DNA of 64,000 nucleotides, taken from positions 186,001 through 250,000 of the forward strand of contig NW_019029001.1 of assembly GCF_002105155.1 (NCBI RefSeq). Reading direction: 5' to 3'. Under the pieces are notes generated by a model that worked only from the letters and a program-made list of their open reading frames with translations, did not search any database and was not told where the DNA came from. The translations under genes and the position numbers were made by a program. Positions 1 through 53,400 of the stretch are shown here, one piece after another; position 1 is the first letter of the stretch; the number at the start of each line of letters is the position of its first letter. This DNA comes from Lobosporangium transversale. Lineage: Eukaryota.

Positions 1-2185
1 CGTTATAAACATCATGGATTCCATCGCCAGGCGTGTTTCCATAAGGGACTGCGGTAGAAAACAAACAATAAAATAAAAATAAAAATAAGATAGAGGCTAA
101 AAAAATATAAATAAAAAAGTAGGAAAACTAGGTATGTCACTTACCAAACCATAGCCACCATGATGGGCCCATGATACTCTTCCAGTTACCCATCAATGAG
201 CCGCGGTGCCATAACTGTTCGCCAGGCTCAACTTTGACAACGTTGAAACCTTGTCCTGACCAATAAGGAGAAGACGAGAAAGAAGACGCTAGGGCTGGGT
301 CCGATCTGATGTATTGAACTCGAACGAAAGTAGCTCTTACATCCTGTAAAGACTCAATTGTTGTCCGATTTTTGAGGATATAATCAGTGTGAGCCGCCGT
401 GAACGAGACAATGAGCAAACCCAACAGAAAAGCTACAGCGGTCATAATCGGCCAGTGTGTATTAAACACACAACGAGGTTGAGTATCATGTCCATCAGCG
501 TCTGAACCATTCAACGGAGAGTTTATCTCGCACCGCCGTACAGCAGATGTAATCATAGGTATCATCGTTGTAACAACAAAGACAGAGATTACAGAGGCAT
601 AGAAAATGAATAGATAAAAAAACTTGTGATTGTTATAGCCGATACAGCCTCTGACCCAAGGACAATGGTGGTCCATCCTGAGTACGCATTTATCGCATTC
701 GGAACAATGGTGGCACCGGTCTGGTTTGACGATCTTACATATATCGCACCATCGAGGACGGCCATCTCGCTTAGCAATGCTGAGGGTGGCAATAGGTTTC
801 TCCGCACGCCTCTTTCCATGTGTGGCTTGTTTTATCCTTTTATCGATATCAATTCTAAAAGAGCCATTTCCTTTATCGTTGCATTGAATCATTGTCGCCT
901 GGCTGGAACAACGCCTTTCCTTCTGCTTCATTCCCTCTGCTCCAGAAGATGTCGCTTGATATTGATGTTGCGCACGATTAGAGCCGGTTGTAACGTTATC
1001 AGGCTTCAGCAATGGCGTGGTATCTGTTACTGGTGAATTGAGTCTCTCTCTTCCCTCCCTAAGATCATCCCGAAACGATGGCATCAGCAGGGCTATGGGG
1101 ATTCTTTGAGGTTGATAAGGAGTGGTCGTGGGTGGGATAGGAGGCGTGGGGCTTCTCTGCGGTGGCTAGTGAAAAGTAGTCCAGAGTAACATGCGCATAA
1201 TATTTTTAAAGTTTCCGTGATCAGTCTATGTACTAGCACGAACGGAACACTAAACGTAAGACAACAAATGATAGCATACATCCAATGGAGATCCTGGCCC
1301 ACAGTTGAGACAACGGATATATGAGATAAAGAAGAGCAGCGATAGAGTATTAATCACGCCCAAATAAAGACCTAGGGTAGTAAAAAAGATCATCAGGCAT
1401 ACATCAACATATGTACCCACATGTCAAGCATACACCCCTTTATTGGCAATCTATCCAGCTCTGGAGGTCTCAAGAAATTGTGGAAAGTCGTCGGTGCTAA
1501 TAACCACATGTTACTCCTGCTAGTCTTCATCGTTACCTGCCTGTAGGGGACGACGCTGCTCATGAAGTATAAAGTCAACTTGTATCGACAATAGAAACAT
1601 AAAAAAGCTCATTAATATTATCAAATCAACTATGCGCAGCAATGAGATGAAGGCATGCAGAAAACTATGGGAGAATAAAACAGAAACTTCAAAGAAAGTA
1701 AGGAAAGACAAAAGAGGAACAAAAATGAACTTACTGCAAACTCGAAAGCTGAAGACATAGTAGATGTAGCCTATGACCAGAGCAAGCCCCAGAGGCATTA
1801 ATGGTTGAACTACATCGCGCACCACATCCAAAGCCAAGGATGATGAGGGATTTGAGCCCGAATTTGTCCCTGCGCCTTGTGCGCTGGCAATGATAGCCAT
1901 ACTATCATTTGCAGCAGCCAAGGCAGCCGCACGCTGAGCAGCAGCTAATGCTGAAGAATGAACCTTGTATCCGTCCACTGTAACTGTGACGGCCGAAGTA
2001 GCATTGGCATTGCTATTGATATCACTAACAGTACTGGCATCAACATCGACATCAACATCGGAATTAACATTGCATTCGACATCAACGTTGGTTAAATACT
2101 CAGAGGAGTGTAATAATGTTGAGGCATTCATCATTGCTGTTGCCCCATGCACCGGCAGCAACCCCTGATGGGAGGAGCTGGTCAT
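1..2185 (-). CDS. DHHC-type palmitoyltransferase (Pfa3/ZDHHC2-like), multi-exon, 3' end beyond window
   Basis: ORF 137-1084 has CDICKIVKPDRCHHCSECDKCVLRMDHHCPW, the NRTTIE motif and TM segments. Upstream TM exons run to ATG 2185. The last exon fragment (PYGNTPGDG) runs off position 1. Confidence 0.9.
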
Positions 2186-2331
2186 AGTGGGCTTAAGTGA
2201 GGAAGTATAAAAAGGAATGATTGAGTTCGAAGGAAGAAGTGGAGAGGAAGGAAAGTTTTATTTCAAGAAAAAAGGAGATTAAATGAGCACCAGCCAACTA
2301 CATTTATAGGCTCGCAATAGTTTTGAGAATA

Positions 2332-7782: not shown

Positions 7783-10296
7783 TATTATAAATGTCTTCGA
7801 AGGAAATGATGGAAGCAATTAAATGAAAACATGCGTGCGAACAGATCTTAAGTGGCAATCGAAATAATTCAATGATTATTTCTCCTTCGAAAGAGATTAT
7901 GGTGTAGAACAAAGTTTATCGGTGACTTTCCTGGAACCCTTCGTCCGCGCCGAGAAAGACTTCACGAGAAGGTTTTCGAGAGCGCCCTATACCTGCCTGT
8001 GTGAGTTCGAGTAATACTTCTGTTCGTTAATATCATCTTGCCGGAATCAACAAGAGTCTTCGTCAGCACTAAAACCTCGACAAATCCTTTGCGAGTTTAT
8101 ATTAGACATGAAATGAGTAGCAGCTCATCATAAAGACATCTGTGACCCCTTGTATGTTACTACTCTAGTCTCCTATAGCTTCACATAATGCCTCTGTACA
8201 TGCAGCACTATCAATAAGGATAACGCATTTGGGAGGCAGCTCCAGCTGCTTATCAATAGAGCGGCGCGTCCCTTTGCTTTGCTTCGTTATTTTATGATTG
8301 CTTTCACAAGTCAAAAATATATTAGAAACGATAGTATTGGACTGAAGAAAAGGGTTGAGCGCAAACGTGTTTCCATCACTGACGAGAATGGCCAAACCGA
8401 CGCTGGCAATTTAGTGACAATGACAGTCGAAAGAGTTGAAGGTGATGGGTCTTATCCCTTCATCCGTAACAAGGGCAAATTTGCCATTATAAATGGGCTC
8501 AATCCATGGAAATTTTATTTCGACGTTGAAATAAATGACCGAAAACTAAACTGTCATGGAGCTATCCTGGCTTCTTTATTTGTGCAAATAAAAAAACTCA
8601 TGAAGGCTTTCGCATGACCCTAGCATCCCCTTGGGAGTCCATTGTATCGTTTATTTATAGACTGATGTAATATAACAGCTATAATATTCGCTGCCGTAGC
8701 ATCGACTTGAAAGGAGGGCAATCTGAGTTGATTCATTCTACCGCACCATAGAGCTTGACTAACTTGATCTTTTCCTGTACAGCTCGGCAAGACTTGATTT
8801 TTCACATCGTTCGCTTCCTCGTCTTCTTGCGTCCCTTGATATATCTGGGTTGGTAAGCACTCCTGTTGGAACCAGAGGGAACCACAGCAACATATCATAC
8901 CCAAGATGATACAAATATCTCTGTTGGAGTGAGTGGTTCAGATGTAGTGGACATAAACGGCGAAAGAATGCATCGAAAGGATGTAAGCGGTTATGGGAGC
9001 AAGGAAGAAGGGGTTGGTATGCCTATTCAAGTCCTTGGCAACAGAGCATGAGTAGCAGTTGTGATCACAAGTTGATTTCGGTGAGTCCGCATAACAATGG
9101 TATAGTTTCAGGGTCCTATCATCCACACACAGCATTGCATTATTATTGTTTTCAGACCTGGCACCAATCATGCGAGGTATTTCTTTTTCTGAGGGTTCCT
9201 AATGTTAAACGGCCAGACAGAAAGCTTAAAAGACATACAGACACAACGGTGAAAAAAATGTATGTGAGCAAACAGCTGCTGTGCTTATTTGTTATCTGCA
9301 CATGCCTTCTTTCACTGCGGGCTTTTTTTTCCTTTTTTGTTCGTCAATCACTGTGTGCACGAACATGCACCAGGCTATTGAATAAACAGCTGAAGCGTCT
9401 CTTTGATTTCTGTACATGTATAAACACATTTTGCATCGCGGCGTTTTTTTTTGTTTTCTAGGCAATTCCAATACATAAGCGTTTTCCATTGGTGCCTCCA
9501 GAAGAAATAAACAAACTTTATTTTGGCGACCACTTCACAATCATGCCATGGTTATAACAATCCCTAGGAAAAAAACTCAAACGCGTCGGTATTAATCTCG
9601 CTTCTGTTATTGTAATTTCGTATATCATGTTGATATCTGTAATTTTATATGCATATATTTTGGCGATTGGTATCAACTATCAAATTCACACATACACACA
9701 CCAAACGACCGCCAAAAACCACCACTCTCGCTTCTGCTCCCTCCATCCACAAGGCGCTGCGCAATATCACCATTAACAAGGCACCGTCCAGTAAGAAAGG
9801 GTGCTTAGATAGCTTTTACTCCAAGCAATAAGCGCATGCAACTACATCACTCCTATCTCCGCCATTGATGCCGGAACTTGAGAGCCAACGAATATATCTG
9901 CTTTAACGCAATAGGCTGTTAGAGCAAAGAGCGACATCTGAACCCATTCTTTGATAAAAAAGGCTTTTTTTTCTCATGTTGTTACCTTTGACAAGGATGT
10001 AATCACCTGTTTCAAAACCACCGCATCCCAACTATATACTCTTGAACTAGTCCAGCAAGAGTTTCCGCAGGCCTGCTTCACCAGTGAGTATGGAGCAACG
10101 CTTCGAGTCTTGGCCTCTACGGAGAAGAAACGAGCCCGCCAATAGCCTAGTCTAGTGCCCACACCTCTAGCTTGTAGCCACACTATTATTGTGATGTTTG
10201 GGGAGAAGCATGCTACTTCCCTATAGCTTTTCATTGTAGACATAAATATATATTTACTATAACAACTACCAGTACTAAAAAATAATAATAAAAGTA

Positions 10297-28903: not shown

Positions 28904-30320
28904 TGTTGTAGTAAAATGTCCTTCAGATGAAGTCAATGATGTTAAGTTTGCCTAAACCTGATTTTGACGTTTCTATTGCCACAAGTTACTAGATGTTGAA
29001 ACAGCAATGAAGAAAAAAAAAAGGGAGGGAAGGAGGGTGAGAGAGAGAAAGCTTATCCTGTCCTTCATCACCAACGTTCAATTTAAATTTTCGAAGCTCT
29101 GTAAGTATACAGTCCCTAGCATTAATTGAAATAGGCGTTCTATCATGCTCTCCAACTCGGCAGCACGCTTAAGACTTTGCAGGTAGTTCTCGGCCAGGAA
29201 CACGTGAATGTCTTCAGCCTTCTAAGTAGGCCCAGTTTTGTCAAACCTTTATTGCGGTGGAAATGACAAAAGGCTCATAATTGCGTGTTCCATACAATGG
29301 ACACGTATCAACAGCCAATACATGTACATGTACATGGTGTGGCCAAGCTATAAGCGACGGACGCGTTGGATGACTTATATATAACTAGTTAAAGCCCTTA
29401 TATATCCAGAGCCATCTCTATATTCTACCTCCTCGTCCTCCGCTTTCTCTTACTATCCACTTTGTCGCCCTATGGTCCCTTTACCCTACTGATTCCGACA
29501 AAACCACCCAAGTTCTTTTTCTTTTTCGCTCAGTACCAAGTTTGCCTTGGGAGGGCTGCCGAGAATGAGGGTGGGAGACTAACGAATCAGGAATACAGGA
29601 ACAACAGTTGAAACATAACTTTGATCTACTAGGGACTGAGGAGATTAAGCTTGATAGGTTAGAGAAGTGTCCTCCGGCTACGACAACAACCAATACAACT
29701 ATGGGTACAATGACTATTGTGGATGTTCGCTAGCCAGAGAGGTGTGCTAAAATCAGCTTGGTCACTTAAAAGCACGACCAGGATGATGAACAAACATGCC
29801 ACACTAATGCGCCATTTAGTACGGCGGGTAAGTTGATGATATTGGGATCCCTTTTATTTGTTAGTTAGAAACTATATCCTAACAATGACAACGGTTCGAA
29901 TATAGTCTATGAATTATCAACCAGTGTGTGTTGCGCCCACGTCCTCTGCAGCAGCTTTCTCGAAGCTGCCTTTCTACGCTCAAAATACTAGCTGCAGCTG
30001 CCAGATCTAATTCAATTGCTATACCATCAGAGCGAAAAGCATTGCTCGTGCCTGCTTGGTCCAAGTTCTCGTTTAAAAGAGATTTGCAAGCAACCAGCGT
30101 CAACATCAATAGTAATTGGAAGGCCATAGTCCAACTATAAGTAAAACCAATTACTGTTTTTTGTCCTTTTGGCTATCGAGTTATTTCAGCCCATGAATTA
30201 TTGGCGCTTTGCAGACCAAGGGATAGCAGAATGCAGAGTCAAGGTTCGATTTGGTTGGTTTTTTATCTTTTTTTTTTTTTTTTTTTTTTGCAAATCATAT
30301 GTTGTGCTATAGCCACGAGC

Positions 30321-41090: not shown

Positions 41091-42408
41091 CTTATCTTTT
41101 TCGATTTAACTAATATCTATTAGGATCCTTATAACAATGTCATTCGCACGACCGTTGAAGCAATGGCTGCTACCTTAGGAGGCACGCAGTCTCTTCACAC
41201 AAACGCGTTTGACGAAGCCATCGGTCTGCCAACTGAATTCAGTGCCCGCATTGCCCGTAATACGCAGCTGATCTTACAAGAGGAGGCATTCATTCCCAAA
41301 GTAGCTGATCCATGGGGAGGTTCCTACATGATGGAATCAATGACCAATGATATGTATGATGCTGCTAAGAAGATTGTCGAGGAAGTCGAAGCGATGGGAG
41401 GTATGGCCAAGGCTGTAGCAAGTGGAATGCCAAAGCTTAGGATCGAAGAATCCGCTGCTAAGAAGCAGGCTCGCATCGATTCAGGTCAAGGTGAGATGCT
41501 GTTCAATGAAAAATATGTGTGTATAATATTTGTTGCTCGGAGATAATATATTTATATGATACGGATACTTTGTTTTAATCTTTTATTTTTTATTACTATG
41601 ACTTGTTATTTGGGTAAAAGATGTCATTGTCGGTGTCAACAAATATCGCTTGGCCAAAGAGGATCCGATTGATGTTTTAGCCATTGATAACACAGCCGTT
41701 CGTCTGGGCCAGACCAGACGCTTGGAGGAAATACGTAAGAAGAGGAACGTCGAAAAAGCAGAAGCATGCCTAACGGCACTGACCGAATGTGCTAAAACGG
41801 GTAAAGGCAACCTCCTTGCCCTTGCTGTTGAGGCTGCCAAGGAGAGGTGCTCTGTTGGTGAAATCTCATATGCGTTGGAGAAGGTATGGGGGCGCCATTC
41901 ACCTTCTATCCGTGTTGTCTCTGGAGCATACAAGTCTGAGTATGGTGATAGCAATGACGTGAGCGAAACCATTTCCTTGGTAGAAAAGTTTTTGAAAGAA
42001 CAGGGAAGACGCCCACGTTTATTGGTGGCCAAGATGGGTCAAGATGGGCATGATCGTGGAGCCAAAGTGATTGCTTCTGGATTTGCAGACTTGGGTTTTG
42101 ATGTTGATGTAGGACCATTATTCCAAACACCAGCCGAAGTAGCACGCCAAGCTATTGATGCTGATGTGCATGTTGTTGGCGTCTCATCTCAGGCAGCAGG
42201 CCACAAAACACTTGTACCACAATTGATTGCAGAGTTGAAGAAGCAAGGAGCCGGAGACAAGCTTGTGATCTGTGGAGGTGTTATCCCCCAACAGGACTAT
42301 CAGTTCTTGTATGACGCTGGCGTCACTTCTGTGTTTGGTCCTGGCACCCGTATCCCTGTAGCAGCACAAGAGGTAGTGAACAAGATTGACGAAAAGCTGA
42401 AGCTATAA
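39468..42408 (+). CDS. MUT: Adenosylcobalamin-dependent methylmalonyl-CoA mutase, mitochondrial
   Basis: [50 protein letters not shown], the B12-binding motif [15 protein letters not shown], and GGVIP. Spliceosomal introns are present. Confidence 0.97.
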
Positions 42409-42914
42409 AATGTAGATAAAAACAAAGAACGAGGGAAGAAAGTTGAATATTTTCGCATTAGTAATAGAAGCATTGAGCACTGAGGAAATATCTTCAAACG
42501 ATAATAAATCATTATATTTCTTCATGTGTTCAGTAAACTCTCTCTTGCAGCTCTCTTGTCAATGCTCAAATATCACTTTTCATTTTGTCTTTGCCCTTTA
42601 TAATGGATGTGCTGTATCCTGTCATTCTATCCTTTTTGTTACACACATCGACTCTTTTTCAGTGAAGATTAATTTGATAGTATGACTATCCCAGGGCAAT
42701 GTAAACTGCAATCCATTTTTGAGCATGGGTGTTCGGTTCATAAAGTCGTCTTGTTGCCCCTAAAACAAAGATTTCTTTGCTATGTTGATCTGTAAGGTTT
42801 TTAAAGTTAGTCCAGAAATTCAGGGGCAAAAGATTAGGTAGAAAGGATACAGGAGACGAAAATAACAGAACTTACAAATTTTTTGTGGGTGTGCCGGCAC
42901 CCAAATACTTGTGT

Positions 42915-44711
42915 CTAGCGTCGTGCGCGCTTTGCACCCGGAGCAGGCGACTCTTCCGAAGGTTTGTACTTTGCAGGTCTCTCTTGCCTCTCAATTTGAG
43001 CAGGACCAATTCTTGCGATGTTTTCCGCCCCTACTGCGTCACGGTCGAAGAATACCTTACATGCCCGGCAATAATTAAAGCGAAGGTTCACCGCCTCTAA
43101 AAGCTATCGCAGAGGGGTCGAGGGCAGCGGGCGCTGGTGTAAAATTCGTGCGCCCCTCGTGTCTTGACTTAAGCGTTTCAACTGGCAGTCGTTTATCAGC
43201 AAGGGCTCCAGCTTTTCTTATTTTTTTTTAAAAAAGTCATACCTGTGTGACAAGGTGTCTCGTTATAGCAGTGTGCTTGCTGGGAACCCCTTTACTACTT
43301 TCAAAGGACCCTAGGCCGACGACACTCGCTGCACCGCGTAGTCGAACGTAGCTCGTTGAGCCTTTCGTAGGTCCCATTTTTTTTAAGTGTCATCTAGACT
43401 CGTAGAACTCTTGAAGCACATCCAAATTCTTTGATCCTGTCTGTGTCTGGGACTCCTTGTTCATCCATTAAAAGTACTCATTGTACGTATCCCTTCCAAA
43501 CACAGGGATGGCGCTCTCAACCTCAATCATTCCTTTTTCACGCTTCCTTTTGTTCAACAGGTGATTGAAACGGAGGACGGGGAGGTACAAGAACCTGCTT
43601 CTCACCTTTACCGTTTGCCGCAAGTTAGGGTTGTGAGGATCCAGGGAGGAAAACGTAAGGACGTTAACAATACCAGGATCGCATCCGACGATAGTTGTGG
43701 TGTTTGCGGATGGGCATCGCTCTGGCTCGTTGAATGTGAGCTCAACATTTTCAAGCAGTTTGGAGCTCCTCTTCCAGTTTATGTTTGCGTAGTCTTCATC
43801 TGTCAGGTCTTCATCGGCTGCCTTTGAACACGTCGTGTTGAGGAATCCTTGAGAAAGCTGTAGATTCAGAACAAGACTGTTGGTAGGAATCGTTCCTTTG
43901 AGTTTGAACCGAGTTATATCTTTGTCCTGTGACTGTAGGGATACTTTGTCTCGATATCCATGAACCATGCGATCACCTCCAATGTCACAAAAGAGAGCCT
44001 GTATCAAAACCCCTTTTGTTCCCTGTATACACTCAAGCATTGCAGTCTTGGAAGGATTGTTGAGAGGCAGAATACGCTCCAGCAGCCGCTTGGTATCTTC
44101 GTTCACCCAGAGGATGTCAACTAGGGCGTGTTCAGATAGATACACATACCCAGGTGTCCAGGGGGACGTAGGAAAGTCTGAGTATTTTTTCACTTTTTTG
44201 TTCTCCCGCAAAAAAACTCAATATCGCTCATATCTTCGTTTGTTTTCTCGACATCAAACTAGAAAAAATAAAAAATAAAAAATAAAAAAGTCTGGATAGT
44301 TGCAGAATATGCATGAAAATACCCTACACAAGGTTATACCATTGCGCTCCTGTAGTGCTGCTTTAATGATGTCTGTACTTGGCCCATTAGTAGCTCTGAT
44401 GCTCTTGGAAATGAGATCTTTTTGGGATCAAAGCCTTGCACGTCCCCCAATGCGATGTCTATTTCCTTTATTGGGGGAAGTTCAGTGGTGGCCTTCATAA
44501 GTGAGGAGATAATGGGGCGTTTCTACCGCCTTTCCTTGTTTTTTTTGCCCTCACGTAAGCTGAATTGGGGCCACCTTGACCACTTAAAAGAAGGGTGGCA
44601 AGACGGAAGGAATAGCCAGTGCTATCCAAGACCTCGTCCAGTGCCTTTTTCCTCGACCTTGCTGCCCCTAGTAACCGCATGATCCTCTCAATGTCCAAGG
44701 CAATCGCCCAG
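42915..44711 (-). pseudogene. Inverted partial copy (3' half: RuvC/zinc-finger part) of the Fanzor-like gene
   Basis: Reverse complement of 45998-47794, with the same stops and frameshifts. Confidence 0.85.
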
Positions 44712-47700
44712 ACTATACATATTGATGGGGAACCTTGTACTGAGAAAGAAAAAGCAAGGACAGAACGGCAAGCCATAAGACAAAAAAATATGGATGCTTT
44801 GGAGAACGATATGAGCACCTTCGAGAGAAATTCTCGGAGTGGGGTATGGACTCGTCCTCAAGTCATGAGGCGCATCCAGAAGGGTCTTCGAGAATCAGCT
44901 GGCAACAGTCCTTAGCTCTGTCTTCGATGTCTGTCTGTGTGCAAATGAAGCGGATCCATGCATAGGGTGCCATAATGAGGAGAATGATAGGATCGTGATA
45001 TCCCAAGACTCTGATTTTTTTGCGTACGAACGAGTCTGCTTCCTAGTGCGATCCTTTCCACACCGTAGACGGAAGTTTGAGGCTTACGACGTGGACAATG
45101 TTATCAAAGTACTAAACCTGCCATCACACGAACATCTGGTGTTATTCTGTGCCATCGCAGACAATGATTACTCAAGGAACCTCGAGACGTTGGACCCGAT
45201 TAATAATCTTCGATTAGTTCGAGAGGTTGCGTGGAACAAGAACTACAATAAAATGCTTCAAGATTACCTTAGGGAAGCTAATAAGATGTTGGGAAGGAAT
45301 GCAGCCTCTGAAGAAGGCCGTTTCAGAGTAGCTCTCCGTATTTTTACTTCCGGCCATCAAACGTCGGCCCAAGCGTTACCATCGAACAATGAGTTCGATA
45401 ACTTCAAGCAGCGTCTACTCAATGGAAAGGATCTTCGCAATAGAATGGCTCAGCAAAGGCGAGCGCAGCGCCGCAGAACGTAAGAAAGCTCAAGCTATAG
45501 TTTTGGCCTTGAAACCAGACGTCCCCAATACTAATCGTTAGTCCCTTTCTTGAATAATGTAGAGGCGCACCATCATTCTATATAGCGGAAGGGTCACATA
45601 GAAACCAGTTCCGGCCCATCTTTTCTGACAAGCCGAGCATATTGAATGGGCGCACAGTTGATATCAGTAACTGCCGTCAGCACGATAGGCGAGGCCTTAA
45701 GCATCCACCACGTCGGAGAAAGGCAAAAAAGAAGCAACAGAAAAAACAAAAGCGGAAGCACAAAGGCAAGAAGCCCCACAGGGCTAAAAAAGAAGGTGCA
45801 CCAATTAGGAACTTGAAGGATGCTACGAAGGTTGATCACAGCTACAGTAGTAAGCACCCTATCAAGGCCTTAACAATTGGGTCCCTCAAGGCTTCCATGG
45901 CAAGGAAAGGCGGACTGGACGCAGATGAAAGGGATAATATTGCAAGCCAGATCCGAGGGGCAGTTGTTGTCCTCAACCGACTACGCCGCTATGCATACTG
46001 GGCGATTGCCTTGGACATTGAGAGGATCATGCGGTTACTAGGGGCAGCAAGGTCGAGGAAAAAGGCACTGGACGAGGTCTTGGATAGCACTGGCTATTCC
46101 TTCCGTCTTGCCACCCTTCTTTTAAGTGGTCAAGGTGGCCCCAATTCAGCTTACGTGAGGGCAAAAAAAACAAGGAAAGGCGGTAGAAACGCCCCATTAT
46201 CTCCTCACTTATGAAGGCCACCACTGAACTTCCCCCAATAAAGGAAATAGACATCGCATTGGGGGACGTGCAAGGCTTTGATCCCAAAAAGATCTCATTT
46301 CCAAGAGCATCAGAGCTACTAATGGGCCAAGTACAGACATCATTAAAGCAGCACTACAGGAGCGCAATGGTATAACCTTGTGTAGGGTATTTTCATGCAT
46401 ATTCTGCAACTATCCAGACTTTTTTATTTTTTATTTTTTATTTTTTCTAGTTTGATGTCGAGAAAACAAACGAAGATATGAGCGATATTGAGTTTTTTTG
46501 CGGGAGAACAAAAAAGTGAAAAAATACTCAGACTTTCCTACGTCCCCCTGGACACCTGGGTATGTGTATCTATCTGAACACGCCCTAGTTGACATCCTCT
46601 GGGTGAACGAAGATACCAAGCGGCTGCTGGAGCGTATTCTGCCTCTCAACAATCCTTCCAAGACTGCAATGCTTGAGTGTATACAGGGAACAAAAGGGGT
46701 TTTGATACAGGCTCTCTTTTGTGACATTGGAGGTGATCGCATGGTTCATGGATATCGAGACAAAGTATCCCTACAGTCACAGGACAAAGATATAACTCGG
46801 TTCAAACTCAAAGGAACGATTCCTACCAACAGTCTTGTTCTGAATCTACAGCTTTCTCAAGGATTCCTCAACACGACGTGTTCAAAGGCAGCCGATGAAG
46901 ACCTGACAGATGAAGACTACGCAAACATAAACTGGAAGAGGAGCTCCAAACTGCTTGAAAATGTTGAGCTCACATTCAACGAGCCAGAGCGATGCCCATC
47001 CGCAAACACCACAACTATCGTCGGATGCGATCCTGGTATTGTTAACGTCCTTACGTTTTCCTCCCTGGATCCTCACAACCCTAACTTGCGGCAAACGGTA
47101 AAGGTGAGAAGCAGGTTCTTGTACCTCCCCGTCCTCCGTTTCAATCACCTGTTGAACAAAAGGAAGCGTGAAAAAGGAATGATTGAGGTTGAGAGCGCCA
47201 TCCCTGTGTTTGGAAGGGATACGTACAATGAGTACTTTTAATGGATGAACAAGGAGTCCCAGACACAGACAGGATCAAAGAATTTGGATGTGCTTCAAGA
47301 GTTCTACGAGTCTAGATGACACTTAAAAAAAATGGGACCTACGAAAGGCTCAACGAGCTACGTTCGACTACGCGGTGCAGCGAGTGTCGTCGGCCTAGGG
47401 TCCTTTGAAAGTAGTAAAGGGGTTCCCAGCAAGCACACTGCTATAACGAGACACCTTGTCACACAGGTATGACTTTTTTAAAAAAAAATAAGAAAAGCTG
47501 GAGCCCTTGCTGATAAACGACTGCCAGTTGAAACGCTTAAGTCAAGACACGAGGGGCGCACGAATTTTACACCAGCGCCCGCTGCCCTCGACCCCTCTGC
47601 GATAGCTTTTAGAGGCGGTGAACCTTCGCTTTAATTATTGCCGGGCATGTAAGGTATTCTTCGACCGTGACGCAGTAGGGGCGGAAAACATCGCAAGAAT

Positions 47701-47794
47701 TGGTCCTGCTCAAATTGAGAGGCAAGAGAGACCTGCAAAGTACAAACCTTCGGAAGAGTCGCCTGCTCCGGGTGCAAAGCGCGCACGACGCTAG
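44712..47794 (+). pseudogene. XPG/FEN1-like 5' nuclease fused to TnpB/Fanzor-like RuvC nuclease, 5'-truncated, intron-containing, disrupted
   Basis: 5'-nuclease motifs: HIDG..TEK, NEADP, VISQDSD, CAIADNDY. RuvC part: IVGCDPG (I), HEFYTSARCPRPLC (II plus Zn finger), CRACKVFFDRDAVGAENI (III). Introns at 45480-45562, about 46370-46450 and 47467-47527. Several stops and frameshifts. Confidence 0.8.
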
Positions 47795-48078
47795 ACACAA
47801 GTATTTGGGTGCCGGCACACCCACAAAAAATTTGTAAGTTCTGTTATTTTCGTCTCCTGTATCCTTTCTACCTAATCTTTTGCCCCTGAATTTCTGGACT
47901 AACTTTAAAAACCTTACAGATCAACAGATACAACAGAGAAACACAAGGTTCTTAAGACGACCTTTTTTTTTTTCTTTCTTTAATCTTATATGAATAAATG
48001 AACTACATGGAAAAGTAAAACGACAGGAGGATGTGTGGAAGAAATGATTGATATGATGAAGCGATAGATAGAGATCTA

Positions 48079-50005
48079 TTACTTGGTGACCTCATGAATA
48101 GCTCTAGCAAGGTAGGCAACGTTCTTGCTCGAAATACCAGCGACAGAGATACGGCCATCCTTGGTCAAGTAAATGTGGTGCTCGTTCTTCAACTTTTCAA
48201 CCTGCTCTGGCGTCAAGCCAGTATAGCAGAACATACCAATTTGGTTGGTAATGTGGTCCCAGTTGAGCTTAGATTTGTGATCGTTGACAAGATGGTTCTT
48301 GAGCTGAGTGCGCATGGTAATAATGCGGTCAGCCATGACCTTGACCTCCTTCAACCACTCAGCGTTCAGCTCAGGACTGTTTAAAACAGCGGCAACAATG
48401 CGGGCGCCGTTAACAGGGGGATTAGAATACATGGGACGGACAACAATTTTGATCTGAGAGTCGACACGAGCCTTTTCCTCTGGAGAGGAAGTCACCAAGC
48501 TAAAAGATCCGGTACGCTCGCCATAAAGACCCATGTTCTTGGCAAATGATTGGGAGAGAGCGAGCAAGTGACCATCCTGGACAAACTTGCGGAGAGCATA
48601 AGCGTCCTTGTCAGTGCTGCCAGAGGCAAAGCCTTGGTAGGCCATATCGAAGAAAGGGAAGTGACCAGCACCTTTGATGATCTTGGAGAGTTCATCCCAC
48701 TGAGCTTGGGTCGGATCAACACCAGTAGGATTATGGGCGCAAGCATGTAGCAAAATAATCGATCCCTTGGGGGCATTCTAAGACATTCATATTTCATTAC
48801 ATCAATAAAAGTACATGTTTAGTCATAAAGCATCATGGTGTTGATTCACAATTCCATAATCACGCTTTCACAATGGCTTTACCTTGATGTCGTTGACCAT
48901 ACCCTCGAAGTCGAGGCCATTGGTCTTCTTATCAAAATATTTATAATGGTTAACCTCCAAACCAGAGTCCTTAAAGATTGGAATGTGATTACCCCAGGTA
49001 GGAGTTGGAACAAAGATCTTCTTGCTGGAGGGGTACCATCTAGCAAGGAACTCGCCTCCAACACGGAGAGCACCAGTACCAGAGATAGTTTGCGTAATGG
49101 CAATCTGCCGATGAACAAGCGGCGAAAAGGGAACATAAAAGGAATTTATACTTCAACACCCGCAAGTATAATCTGTAAAACATTCTAAATTAATACATTT
49201 AAGGTGTACTTACGCGACCCTCCTTCAAGGGAGAGCTATCTGCGCCGTAGGCGAGAAGAGCAGCACCCTTGTTGAATTCTGGAACACCAGTAATACCGGC
49301 ATATTCTTTGTCAAGCAAATCCTTCATGATCCTGTCCTCAGCCTAGATAGATATATAACATTAACAAAACACATTAAAATCAAGAAGGTTTGATTCCTTC
49401 ACATCTTTTCTTATGTCAAAACGATGATACCTTGCGGACACAATTCAAGACGAAAGGCTTTCCAGCATCATCACGGTAGGCGCCGACACCAAGGTTCATT
49501 TTGTTAGGATTGGTGTCCTTCTTGAAAGCCTCGGTGACACCAAGAATAGCATCAGGAGGGCCTAGGATTTTCACAAAAGGAAAATTGCGGGGGAGAGCTC
49601 AGTAAATTATAATCACATGTGTCACTCTTGAGTCTTTTTAAATCCACTTCATGACATTTTGAGACTTCGGATAGGGAATAATGAATACAAAACAAGTCCT
49701 TTTACACTACTCCCATTGTAGTACTAAACTACTTCAATAATATCCCAGCGTGAGGACAATGCTAATATGAATCAATCCAGAACTGGACGCTGATTTTGAT
49801 GCAGCTTATCCTCCAGGAACTCTAAACTTTCTCATGGATGCTGACAGACGCGTCCTATCTCAACGGCAATATTTCAGGCAAAAGACCTACCCATGGGAAC
49901 GTTAGACCACACTGAGGAGAAACGAACGCCAATAGCTGCAGTAGGACGCAAAGTGGCGCGGGTAAGGACAGCGCGAGCAAAGACTCTGGATTGAGCAGCC
50001 AACAT
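48079..50005 (-). CDS. GOT2: Mitochondrial aspartate aminotransferase
   Basis: Presequence [14 protein letters not shown], then [30 protein letters not shown], the PLP lysine motif [12 protein letters not shown], and DGRIS. Confidence 0.96.
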
Positions 50006-50439: not shown

Positions 50440-53400
50440 CCTCAGCCTTAAATGGTGCTTGACGTTTGGTGTGCACTGAACAACCGTCTTTCATCCATAG
50501 ATATGCTCCATTCTTGGCTATCGCTGGAGGCAAAGGGGCCGCTGTTAGTGCATTAGATAACCACGGACGACGTTGGCTATGTTGTAGCTCGCCATCACAT
50601 CTCTGTGCATAAATGTCTTGCATTTGGAACAATAGAGTCGGCGAATGTCAACCTGCCCTACAAATCCTTCACAGTTTGGGTGCTTCTTAGAAGTGTAGTA
50701 TTTGTTCACGCCGGCAGCAATGTATCCAAGAGATCTGGCCTAGGAGAAGCGTAGGTGTATTATTATCGGCTATAGGGTAAGAAAATATAAACAATAAGAG
50801 TAAAAAATAAAATAAAAACTTATTGTTTGAATGAAGTAAGGTTGAAACGACTCATGTAAGGAAGAAAGCCTGGTATTGGAAGGAGGCTTCCCCAGACATA
50901 CAGCAATCACAACCTTGTCGGCAACTGAACCACCCACCATCTTGGGCAAACGGCTGGCGACCTGAACGTATTCTTCATCTCGGGCCCTCTTCGCGTTCTA
51001 CTGATGCCTTTTGATGGCTCTTTTCGTATTAAAGGAACTGAGGTGTGTCTCCACTTCTGCAAGCTTATCGATGTATTCTAATGCTTGCTCCATTGCCGCG
51101 GAGGGGTGATAGACTGCTCTCAATATCGCTGATGCATTTTGTAAAACCATCAATGATTGCTGTTGTTCTCCTTTTTCATCCAGTTTCAATGCTTAAATGT
51201 GGGTTGATACACCGCCTTTTGCTTGGTAGCCAGGTTATAGAACTTGGGCTGTACGGCTGTGCCATTGGAACCTTCATGATTTGGCAACAAAGCATTGGCA
51301 CCAATCACGCACGCTTGTCCGAGGTCCAAAATCTTGATGTTTTCTGGTTGACATCCCCAAAGCCGGTGAATATCATTACTGGCCTTGACTGTCTTCCTAA
51401 TTTCGGTCAAATAGTAGTCTGCACCACCAACTGCAGAGGTGATTCGAGAAGGTAGTTTGTTCTCAGGCAATCGTTGGTACTTCACTGCATTCAGCTCGTT
51501 TATCTTAAATGCCAGGAATTGAAGAAGGAAGCCATCGTTCCGCAAGACATAACCATTTGTCGTGTGTATTTGATTCAAGGATATCGGTCTCTCATCTCTG
51601 ATAGAGACGTCGTGTAAGTCTTGGCTTTGAATTCTTTGAGCCCTCAGCACTGCTCTGGTTAAAGCCTCCAATGTCGGTAATTAGCTTGCTGATAAGGAAC
51701 CCAGGTTCTTTTCAGATAGCCAGCTCAGGCGCCGTTTTCCAGAGGATAAAGATAAGGTTGGGCCCGGACAGGTATATGAAGGGGTCCTCAAACGATGATA
51801 GTGGGGCTAACCTTCGTGAATTCTCTAGAATCTTCCTCATAGGGATGGAGTTTTCAATTGTGGGGATTTTGCAGTCAATGGTAATTGGTGTGTCAGCAGG
51901 TAAAGCGCCTCTGTTCCTTAGGGATTGGATCTATAATATCAAGGAGAGGAATGTCATGTCAGTTATATTTTATTACTTAGATGTATTAATATCTATCAGT
52001 GTGAGAAAGAGTTGTACCTTTTCGCAAAGTGTTTGTGAGCCCTTCACGCAGTGGTTCTTCAATTCGGTAGCCAGTTGCGTGACAATAGACTGTAATATTG
52101 TTGATCCAGGGTATGCCTGCCTTACTTCGATTTTATCACGGCTTGCAATGCTTGGCAAGAAGTCCTTGGTTCTGTCTATAAATCTTTGAGCACCCGCTCC
52201 TTTGCCGTTGGGAGGCTCACGAGTGTAGATACACACGACAAACGCGCCTAAAAAGCTAGTTTGGATGTTCCTTGGTGCAGCGTTTTCAACGATCGACAGC
52301 TTCCCCTATCCTTGTGACTGGTGTTGTCAATACAAAGGCTCTCGACATACAGGTGGTGGCTCTCTAGCAGACACATTTGACTTTTGAGGCTTCACCAACA
52401 ACTTGAAGGTAGCTCTTAATGGCAGATGCTAGATCAGTGCTCGCTTGATATTCGCGGAAATGGTTCCGACATTAAGAGTACTTGTCGGATGTTCCAATTC
52501 CATGACTTTGACCAGACCTTGTTTATTCATATCATTTACATTTTTTCGTTCTGCTTTCTTTTGCTGTTTTGTCTTTTTGGGCTTCGGAGTACTCAATCTG
52601 CCACTAACAGTACTTTCGAATCCCCTTCCCCATACTTTCCATCTGTACTTCTTCATCTTCTGGGGGGCAGCATGCTCTATCTGTCGCGTACGTGACTTGA
52701 ACGAATAGCACATTCGATGCTTATATTTCTTGCCAGATGCATGAGGAGATACCCTTTTGGACAACATCAATCACCGGGACGTTGTTCAAAACAAATAAAT
52801 TCAATAATAGAGCACGTTGGAGAAATTATGAAGTGGCTTCGTGAAGTGACTTGAACTTGAAGTTCGTTTTAAGTCCCATTTGTGCGATGTCATACTTATA
52901 GTCATTTTTCGAGACAATACAAAGCACGATCAACTGTCCCCTTGAGATGCTTAAATGGCCTAACATGGTTAGAACGTGATAAATATAGCCTTTATGCCTG
53001 GACACAGGTCGCCAGGTGGTCGTTATACTGTACAATATTTTAATATGTCCACTCGCTTCCCTTTGAAGAAGCTACAAACACAATCAGTAACTCCTCTCCC
53101 AATGGCCCCAGCGGCTAGCAAGTTAGTGTTGTTTTGCATTTAGTGCTAGGTTGACGGAGCTGTCGAGACAAAAAGCTCTAGCTGAGTATATCCCATTTGA
53201 TAGACAAAGGAAAAATAGTAACAAAGCAACTAGAATGTCATTTTCCTGCCATTGCACCCTGGACGCAAAGTAGGCAGAGCTTTGATTACTTTAACATATA
53301 ATGACCACCCAACAAGCTATAGTCTTCATTCTTTTATGGTTTATTACAGGCGTAGAATATTAAACATTGCCCAACGCATTTTCCACCCGCTATCCTGTTT

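Follow-up and report, generated by a model that had tools for sequence, protein, structure and literature searches.

A decayed fungal gene joining an EXO1/FEN1-type nuclease to a Fanzor1 nuclease, with a predicted intron-split omegaRNA in its tail

The locus at 44712..47794 in a 64,000-nucleotide stretch of the Lobosporangium transversale genome (assembly GCF_002105155.1, contig NW_019029001.1, positions 186,001 to 250,000; hereafter the window) is a dead copy of a single gene for two nuclease domains, which in relatives have the expected folds and conserved active sites. The N-terminal domain, or head, is a 5' nuclease of the EXO1/FEN1 type, and the remainder is a Fanzor1 nuclease. The pattern of the non-coding tail behind the stop codon suggests an omegaRNA that is split by an intron. 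The value of the locus lies in this gene family and its tail, not in the dead copy itself.

The locus and its inverted repeat

The window, a stretch of fungal genomic DNA, contains ordinary genes with introns. Its plus-strand pieces of the fusion gene are colinear in tblastn with full-length Mortierella alpina proteins from the PIN domain to RuvC-III, and follow one of these, P0013 (1186 aa), from residue 165 through its C-terminus. The closest named proteins are L. transversale models, with 65-89% identity to two query pieces. A re-check of the sequence found every residue and motif cited for the two halves in the preliminary description of this DNA at its proper position. The features of the locus are as follows.

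42781..42782 (no strand): TA by the outer end of the left arm, inferred as a possible target-site duplication with a partner TA at 47929-47930
42783..44711 (-): left arm of the inverted repeat, identical to 45998-47926 in inverted orientation and standing in place of the gene's 5' end
44712..44893 (+): start of the remaining head, FEN1/EXO1-like and 5'-truncated, with D44724 (IHIDG) and the helical arch; begins at about residue 81 of homolog P0001
44890..45479 (+): remainder of the FEN1/EXO1-like domain, with E44947 (ANEADP), D44953, D45007 and D45013 (SQDSD) and D45166 (DNDY)
45480..45562 (+): intron 1, GT..AG, 83 nt, branch CTAAT at 45531, at the boundary of head and Fanzor
45563..46369 (+): basic linker followed by the first Fanzor part, which the homolog model places in the WED/REC region
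45998..47926 (+): right arm of the inverted repeat
46370..46450 (+): predicted intron 2, GT..AG, 81 nt; related loci are gapped at the same profile position
46451..47466 (+): REC/WED to RuvC-I, with D47029 (GCDPG), and the bridge region
47467..47540 (+): predicted intron 3, donor at 47467, acceptor at 47527 or a decayed one at 47540
47541..47794 (+): RuvC-II E47562 (HEFYTS), C4 zinc finger (CPRPLC at 47583, CRAC at 47639), RuvC-III D47669 (DRDAVG) and stop (47792-47794)
47806..47833 (+): predicted omegaRNA stem-loop 1 (6 bp, 47806-47823) and a 10-nt A-rich linker
47834..47919 (+): predicted tail intron-like unit, 86 nt, with GTAAGT donor, CTAAC branch at 47899 and CAG acceptor
47920..47930 (+): last bases of the element, predicted to form stem-loop 2 after splicing, closing on the TA at 47929-47930
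47931..47945 (+): candidate guide, the flank adjoining the right end, by analogy with studied Fanzor1 (PMC13565253)

The window copy was already recognized as disrupted in the preliminary description, and it is dead: it is truncated at its 5' end and carries several frameshifts, stops and in-frame losses. A frameshift at 44893, where high-depth contigs have 29 extra bases, ends the first head piece. Further frameshifts lie near 46165-46170 and 46214 in the first Fanzor part, near 46495, 47327 and 47389 in the following exon, which is also interrupted by stops at 47239 and 47317 and has lost 25 residues in frame, and near 47606 in the last exon. Several of those in 46165-47610 fall in homopolymer runs, as do frameshifts in the L. 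transversale models P0009 and P0010, and could reflect slippage or sequencing error. Only 8 of 25 transitions are attributable to CpG decay. Position 44712, which the preliminary description had taken as the start of the gene, is the edge of an inverted repeat, so that the head lacks its N-terminal 80 residues or so, the first catalytic Asp among them; six of the seven FEN acids are kept, the first having gone together with the 5' end.

The arms of the inverted repeat are 1929 nt long without a single mismatch and are separated by a 1286-nt spacer whose edge is 44712. The left arm repeats the Fanzor region from its 3' part into the non-coding tail, lesions included; since every lesion is found in both arms, the duplication followed the decay. 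The repeat sits between convergent methylmalonyl-CoA mutase and aminotransferase genes and has two right ends, one TA adjoining the left arm and another lying two bases past the right arm. We consider it probable that the repeat is real, and that a later rearrangement put an inverted 3' copy where the 5' end had been. There is a smaller but substantial chance that it is a fold-back created in assembly or library preparation, a reading favored by the 100% identity of the arms of a copy that has otherwise decayed and by the fact that no contig among those listed bridges 44711/44712, in sequencing runs that differ from the window at many fixed positions. An artefact of this kind fits less well with the outer edge, which coincides with the predicted right end of the element and does not run into host DNA, with the separate flank and ordinary host gene that each arm possesses, and with the short imperfect microhomology at the inner junction. 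Apparent opposite-strand joints at 44711/45990 were rejected as support for an inversion, being the normal continuous element seen through the repeat.

Other relics are present in the window. A second decayed head-plus-Fanzor copy, belonging to another family (P0119/P0085 type), occupies 50460-53040 on the minus strand, with a PIN profile match at 52853-53029 (E 9e-12) and colinear tblastn pieces down to RuvC-III. Weak tblastn matches at 29705-29990 on the plus strand mark a small relic of the RuvC-II/zinc-finger end from the same Fanzor family. The preliminary description had passed over the inverted repeat, intron 46370-46450, the donor at 47467 and the tail unit at 47834-47919.

Two nuclease domains in one protein

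The first 340 positions of a family profile (47 rows) match structures of FEN1, XPG, Rad2 and EXO1 (best E 9e-14). Family members have a median identity near 28%, and the seven FEN acids are conserved in 28/28, 38/39, 42/46, 45/46 (D or E), 45/46, 44/45 and 44/45 of the rows with a residue at the position; the helical-arch Arg is conserved in 40/40. AlphaFold models of homologs P0001 (pLDDT 87.6) and P0013 (83.1) have a FEN-like PIN fold with helical arch and helix-turn-helix. The P0001 model matches the FEN1/EXO1 fold (E 9e-10), and residues 2-311 of P0013 align with EXO1 (Z 22.5, rmsd 3.0, 278 aligned), with FEN1 at Z 21.2 and XPG at 20.3 or lower. The sequence matches to PDB structures came with the profile; a single-sequence PDB search with P0013 gave low-complexity noise only. 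The earlier label of an XPG/FEN1-type head was right about the superfamily, given the fold and the seven acids in relatives; in modeled fold the head is about equally near to EXO1 and FEN1 and less near to XPG, and the scores did not single out one subfamily among EXO1, FEN1, XPG and GEN1.

The C-terminal assignment to the TnpB/Fanzor type was borne out. Profile positions 656-916 match SpuFz1 (E 3.7e-8), and residues 441-1185 of P0013 align with SpuFz1 (Z 17.0, rmsd 3.4, 464 aligned) and with PpFz1 (Z 17.6). SpuFz1 takes Foldseek ranks 1-4 for P0013, and the WED/REC/RuvC/TNB fold was found on this homolog. Fanzor1 proteins share the motif D-x(125-275)-[TS][TS]-x-x-C4 zinc finger-x(5-50)-RD (PMC3627910), which the window retains as D47029, HEFYTS, CPRPLC..CRAC and DRD; the spacing from the RuvC Asp to the Glu is 173 in P0013 and 154-170 in its nearest relatives. 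The RuvC-II Glu of Fanzor1 lies about six residues before the zinc finger (PMC13565253), and E-F-Y-T-S-A-R-C in the window and its relatives puts the Glu in the same place. All three RuvC motifs are kept in 10 of 19 long proteins, the other nine being shortened or off-pattern. Sequence pattern, best profile match and modeled fold all point to Fanzor1 for this half. From alignments and models, both halves look active in relatives; the linker between them (residues 346-426 of P0013) is basic and modeled with low confidence. The folds anticipated in the preliminary description were recovered in homologs, single fragments of the window itself remaining below Pfam cut-offs (XPG_I E 0.0076; Cas12f1-like_TNB E 0.075).

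To survey relatives, P0013 was searched against 1.84 billion representative sequences, which gave 920 matches; the best 150 of the 920 and earlier matches form a set of 160 proteins that, having been picked by P0013, does not measure prevalence. Among these matches listed, 23/160 have both halves, 45 have a head without RuvC, 68 have RuvC without a head and 24 have the middle only. Most of the 45 head-without-RuvC proteins look like partial gene models, though some may come from separate genes. Named fusions come from five genera of Mortierellaceae (Mortierella, Linnemannia, Entomortierella, Dissophora and Actinomortierella), and the ESM Atlas holds a 58-member Mucoromycota cluster, 1312 aa, that is named only for its TNB domain. 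Three proteins (P0113, P0137 and P0160) are single fusions of 1131-1302 aa encoded on contigs of 4.0-4.9 kb, and P0160 scores above the Pfam cut-offs for both XPG_I and Cas12f1-like_TNB. P0113 and P0160 are divergent, with a reduced zinc finger (1/4 Cys evident) and 42% identity to each other.

Genomic loci agree with the proteins. Among 13 metagenome loci, the two that include the gene-start region (L010 and L011) have the head upstream of the Fanzor part in the same orientation. Removing four GT..AG introns in silico from L010 leaves an uninterrupted reading frame of 1188 aa in which every catalytic motif is present; of the 32 splice combinations examined, 8 were open. Together with full-length P0013, this locus answers the earlier suggestion that intact copies be sought: the halves are not always separate genes. 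Downstream of the main fusion copy, L011 also contains another Fanzor relic and a faint PIN signal (8006-8644 and 9986-10111). Across 18 fusions, pairwise distances of the head correlate with those of RuvC (Mantel r 0.81; 0/5000 permutations), which indicates joint inheritance as one unit, not joint function. Pattern matches to relatives on viral contigs numbered 16, of which 0 were confirmed.

Intron 1, which joins the two frames just as the preliminary description proposed, is supported by one contig when sequencing runs are compared with the window over 44300-45990. In that contig, from run X7 (guessed to be RNA), exactly 45480-45562, with its GT..AG ends, is missing; none of three DNA runs shows the skip. 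Contig depths of 7-11 for single and 115-165 for collapsed contigs are a rough sign of many copies. The skipped intron, the long proteins on 4.0-4.9 kb contigs and the open L010 frame rule out an annotation artefact as the source of the fusion. It is improbable, too, that the head is a passenger or that retention of intron 1 mostly yields separate proteins, as might be thought from the in-frame stop region at the opening of this intron, where the frame closes at 45483 just behind the head, and from the many database models that end near it; the same three lines of evidence, and a head active site that is near-invariant, speak against both.

A predicted intron-split omegaRNA

The tails of related loci share an unusual layout. 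Among 12 loci with a located stop (L001 and L006 were left out), 9 have a GTAAG[TC] donor 27-72 nt behind the stop, against a background in the window of about 4% per 100 nt; it is missing in L002, L011 and L012, and from the tail of the second relic in the window. In most loci a hairpin of 4-7 bp and then an A-rich linker of about 10-15 nt precede the donor. A branch motif with an acceptor 78-106 nt further on was recognized in six loci, and L005, L008 and L009 each contain two such units; in L004 the rule identified no acceptor, and the sequences of L003 and L007 end too soon. Random positions yield the donor-branch-acceptor layout in 156/1676 cases, and four of the six loci keep strictly within its limits.

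The end of the element follows closely. L005 and L008, which are 94% alike, diverge at a sharp point 7 nt behind the last acceptor, and the window arms likewise end 7 nt behind it. When the tail is joined in silico, the last base of exon 1 and the next two pair with the triplet ending in TA in 7/7 joins, from five families and in both AU/UA and AC/GU versions. This TA-closing stem forms in 0/7 unspliced tails and in 244/3035 control joins (8%), by a criterion set after the sequences had been seen. Whole-tail folding z-scores are weak, the unspliced tail being no better than shuffles (z 0.85), and without splicing the flank sits 100-230 nt from the first hairpin. This pattern suggests an intron-split omegaRNA that would have two hairpins after splicing. 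The predicted spliced product resembles the two-hairpin scaffold of SpuFz1 and PpFz1 (PMC11423790 section 5) and would include the 3' TSD, as the Fanzor1 omegaRNA reportedly does (PMC13565253). Rfam gave no match up to E 1 in 42400-48200, and a group I intron enclosing the element was not found there.

The published PpFz1 omegaRNA carries CAG-GTAAGC 12 nt behind stem-loop 1 (PMC11423790 Table S3), which fits the 5' splice-site consensus perfectly. The accessible parts of PMC11423790 do not speak of an intron or of splicing for this RNA. Because it was defined in yeast, native splicing may have been missed; because it works unspliced in vitro, the motif may be scaffold, donor or both. Our literature search, which Repbase, most subscription journals and supplements on Fanzor domain content (Fig. 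S1B of PMC10530073) lay outside, found no spliceosomal intron inside a Fanzor omegaRNA. Within the same limits, we found no paper joining Fanzor with XPG or describing a fusion of this head to Fanzor, and the fusion goes without mention in the accessible parts of PMC3627910, PMC10432273, PMC10530073, PMC11423790, PMC13565253, PMC5499597 and 10.64898/2026.06.03.729735.

Possible function and known systems

The window locus is best explained as a decayed copy of a multi-copy fungal gene for an EXO1/FEN1-type nuclease and Fanzor1, and we see an even chance that intact copies act as a cut-and-resect homing device. For the fusion, RNA guidance, nuclease activity, resection and homing are inferred. 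Once spliced, the transcript tail would be a short omegaRNA with two hairpins, its guide drawn from the DNA by the right end. The Fanzor part would then cut the empty allele, and the head, tethered by its flexible basic linker, would resect 5' ends or trim flaps and bias repair toward recopying the element. Prokaryotic TnpB/IscB are established to home after RNA-guided cutting, and the same has been proposed for Fanzor (PMC13565253). Spread to new sites needs more than homing, and new TA insertions would probably involve a transposase in trans or repair-based capture. More tentatively, we propose that these genes form a self-contained cut-and-resect Fanzor1 lineage with an active head, in which the spliceosome joins hairpin 1 to hairpin 2 and the guide, which would make guide production depend on splicing; PpFz1 may work likewise.

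One alternative is that no transposase takes part and the two domains are the whole mobility machine. Fanzor would cut near-matches of its guide, the resected end would prime on the right flank of the donor and copy the element inward from its right end, and the head would trim or resolve the junction. As the preliminary description had noted, no transposase is visible nearby: none was found among 70 ORFs scanned in the window, nor in 112 ORFs of at least 105 aa from the window and the flanks of seven loci. The other ORFs around the locus belong to the host or to the element, each copy stands alone next to ordinary host genes, and right ends are sharp, both in L005/L008 and in the window arms, each of which stops there. 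In L005, a host sorting-nexin ORF (1868-2299, minus strand) reaches about 25 nt into the right end of the element. A left end and TIR were not found (the TIR was sought in L010, L011, L005, L009 and L006). We nevertheless consider transposase-free mobility unlikely, since neither the right flanks of L005 and L008 nor the two window flanks are clearly similar to each other, and the TA ends fit TA-specific transposases acting in trans, as for SPu-1 (PMC3627910).

Somewhat less likely still is a head that acts on RNA or on an RNA-DNA hybrid, either maturing the 5' end of the omegaRNA from the mRNA or clearing the R-loop for turnover. Such a role would suit an omegaRNA that must be freed from a spliced mRNA tail, and Rad27/FEN1 reportedly cleaves R-loop RNA. 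Against it, the fold and arch residues are those of DNA 5' nucleases, and the headless Fanzors studied so far already carry their RNA (PMC10530073).

If the cut-and-resect reading is true, a natural Fanzor equipped with its own 5' nuclease would show how a eukaryotic RNA-guided element directs the repair of the break it makes. The protein would then also be a natural, ready-made counterpart of the nuclease-exonuclease fusions that engineers build. Assembly of a guide RNA by the spliceosome, if confirmed, would be a new way to make omegaRNA and would explain failed reconstitution of intron-bearing Fanzors in hosts that do not splice. As P0013 and L010 are intact candidates, both ideas are directly testable.

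The two halves depart from their known relatives in different ways. Like EXO1, FEN1 and XPG, the head has the shared fold (Z 20-22.5), the N-terminal Met-Gly position, the seven acids, a basic helical arch and a GxDY-like helix-turn-helix motif; unlike these single-copy repair genes, with which it is 12-18% identical, it is fused to Fanzor in a repeated element. The Fanzor half is like SpuFz1, PpFz1 and GtFz1 (PMC3627910, PMC10432273, PMC11423790) in its C-terminal motif, in the RuvC-II Glu just before the zinc finger and in its whole fold, and the family, like Fanzor1, is multi-copy, with a short hairpin tail behind the stop and probably TA at its end. It differs in length (about 1150-1300 aa for the fusion compared to 600-850), in its N-terminal EXO1/FEN1-type nuclease and in a tail split by one or two intron-like units.

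The arrangement of the window locus resembles the Mu killer and Ac composite insertions of maize (PMC3440606; 10.1101/2020.01.07.897926), which are likewise partial inverted duplications with the same end on both sides, where read-through from flanking genes is possible; in the window locus it is a fungal Fanzor element whose 3' end is duplicated. The maize insertions give hairpin RNA and silence their families (PMC3440606; 10.1101/2020.01.07.897926). By analogy, similar hairpin RNA may arise from the window locus, and the fold-back shape of a dead copy could seed silencing of the family. Finally, IStrons, which combine a group I intron with a TnpB omegaRNA (PMC13565253), also bring splicing and guide-RNA formation together at the 3' end of the element. 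In the fusion family, by contrast, the unit is short and of spliceosomal type (78-106 nt), and the prediction is that splicing builds the scaffold instead of competing with it.
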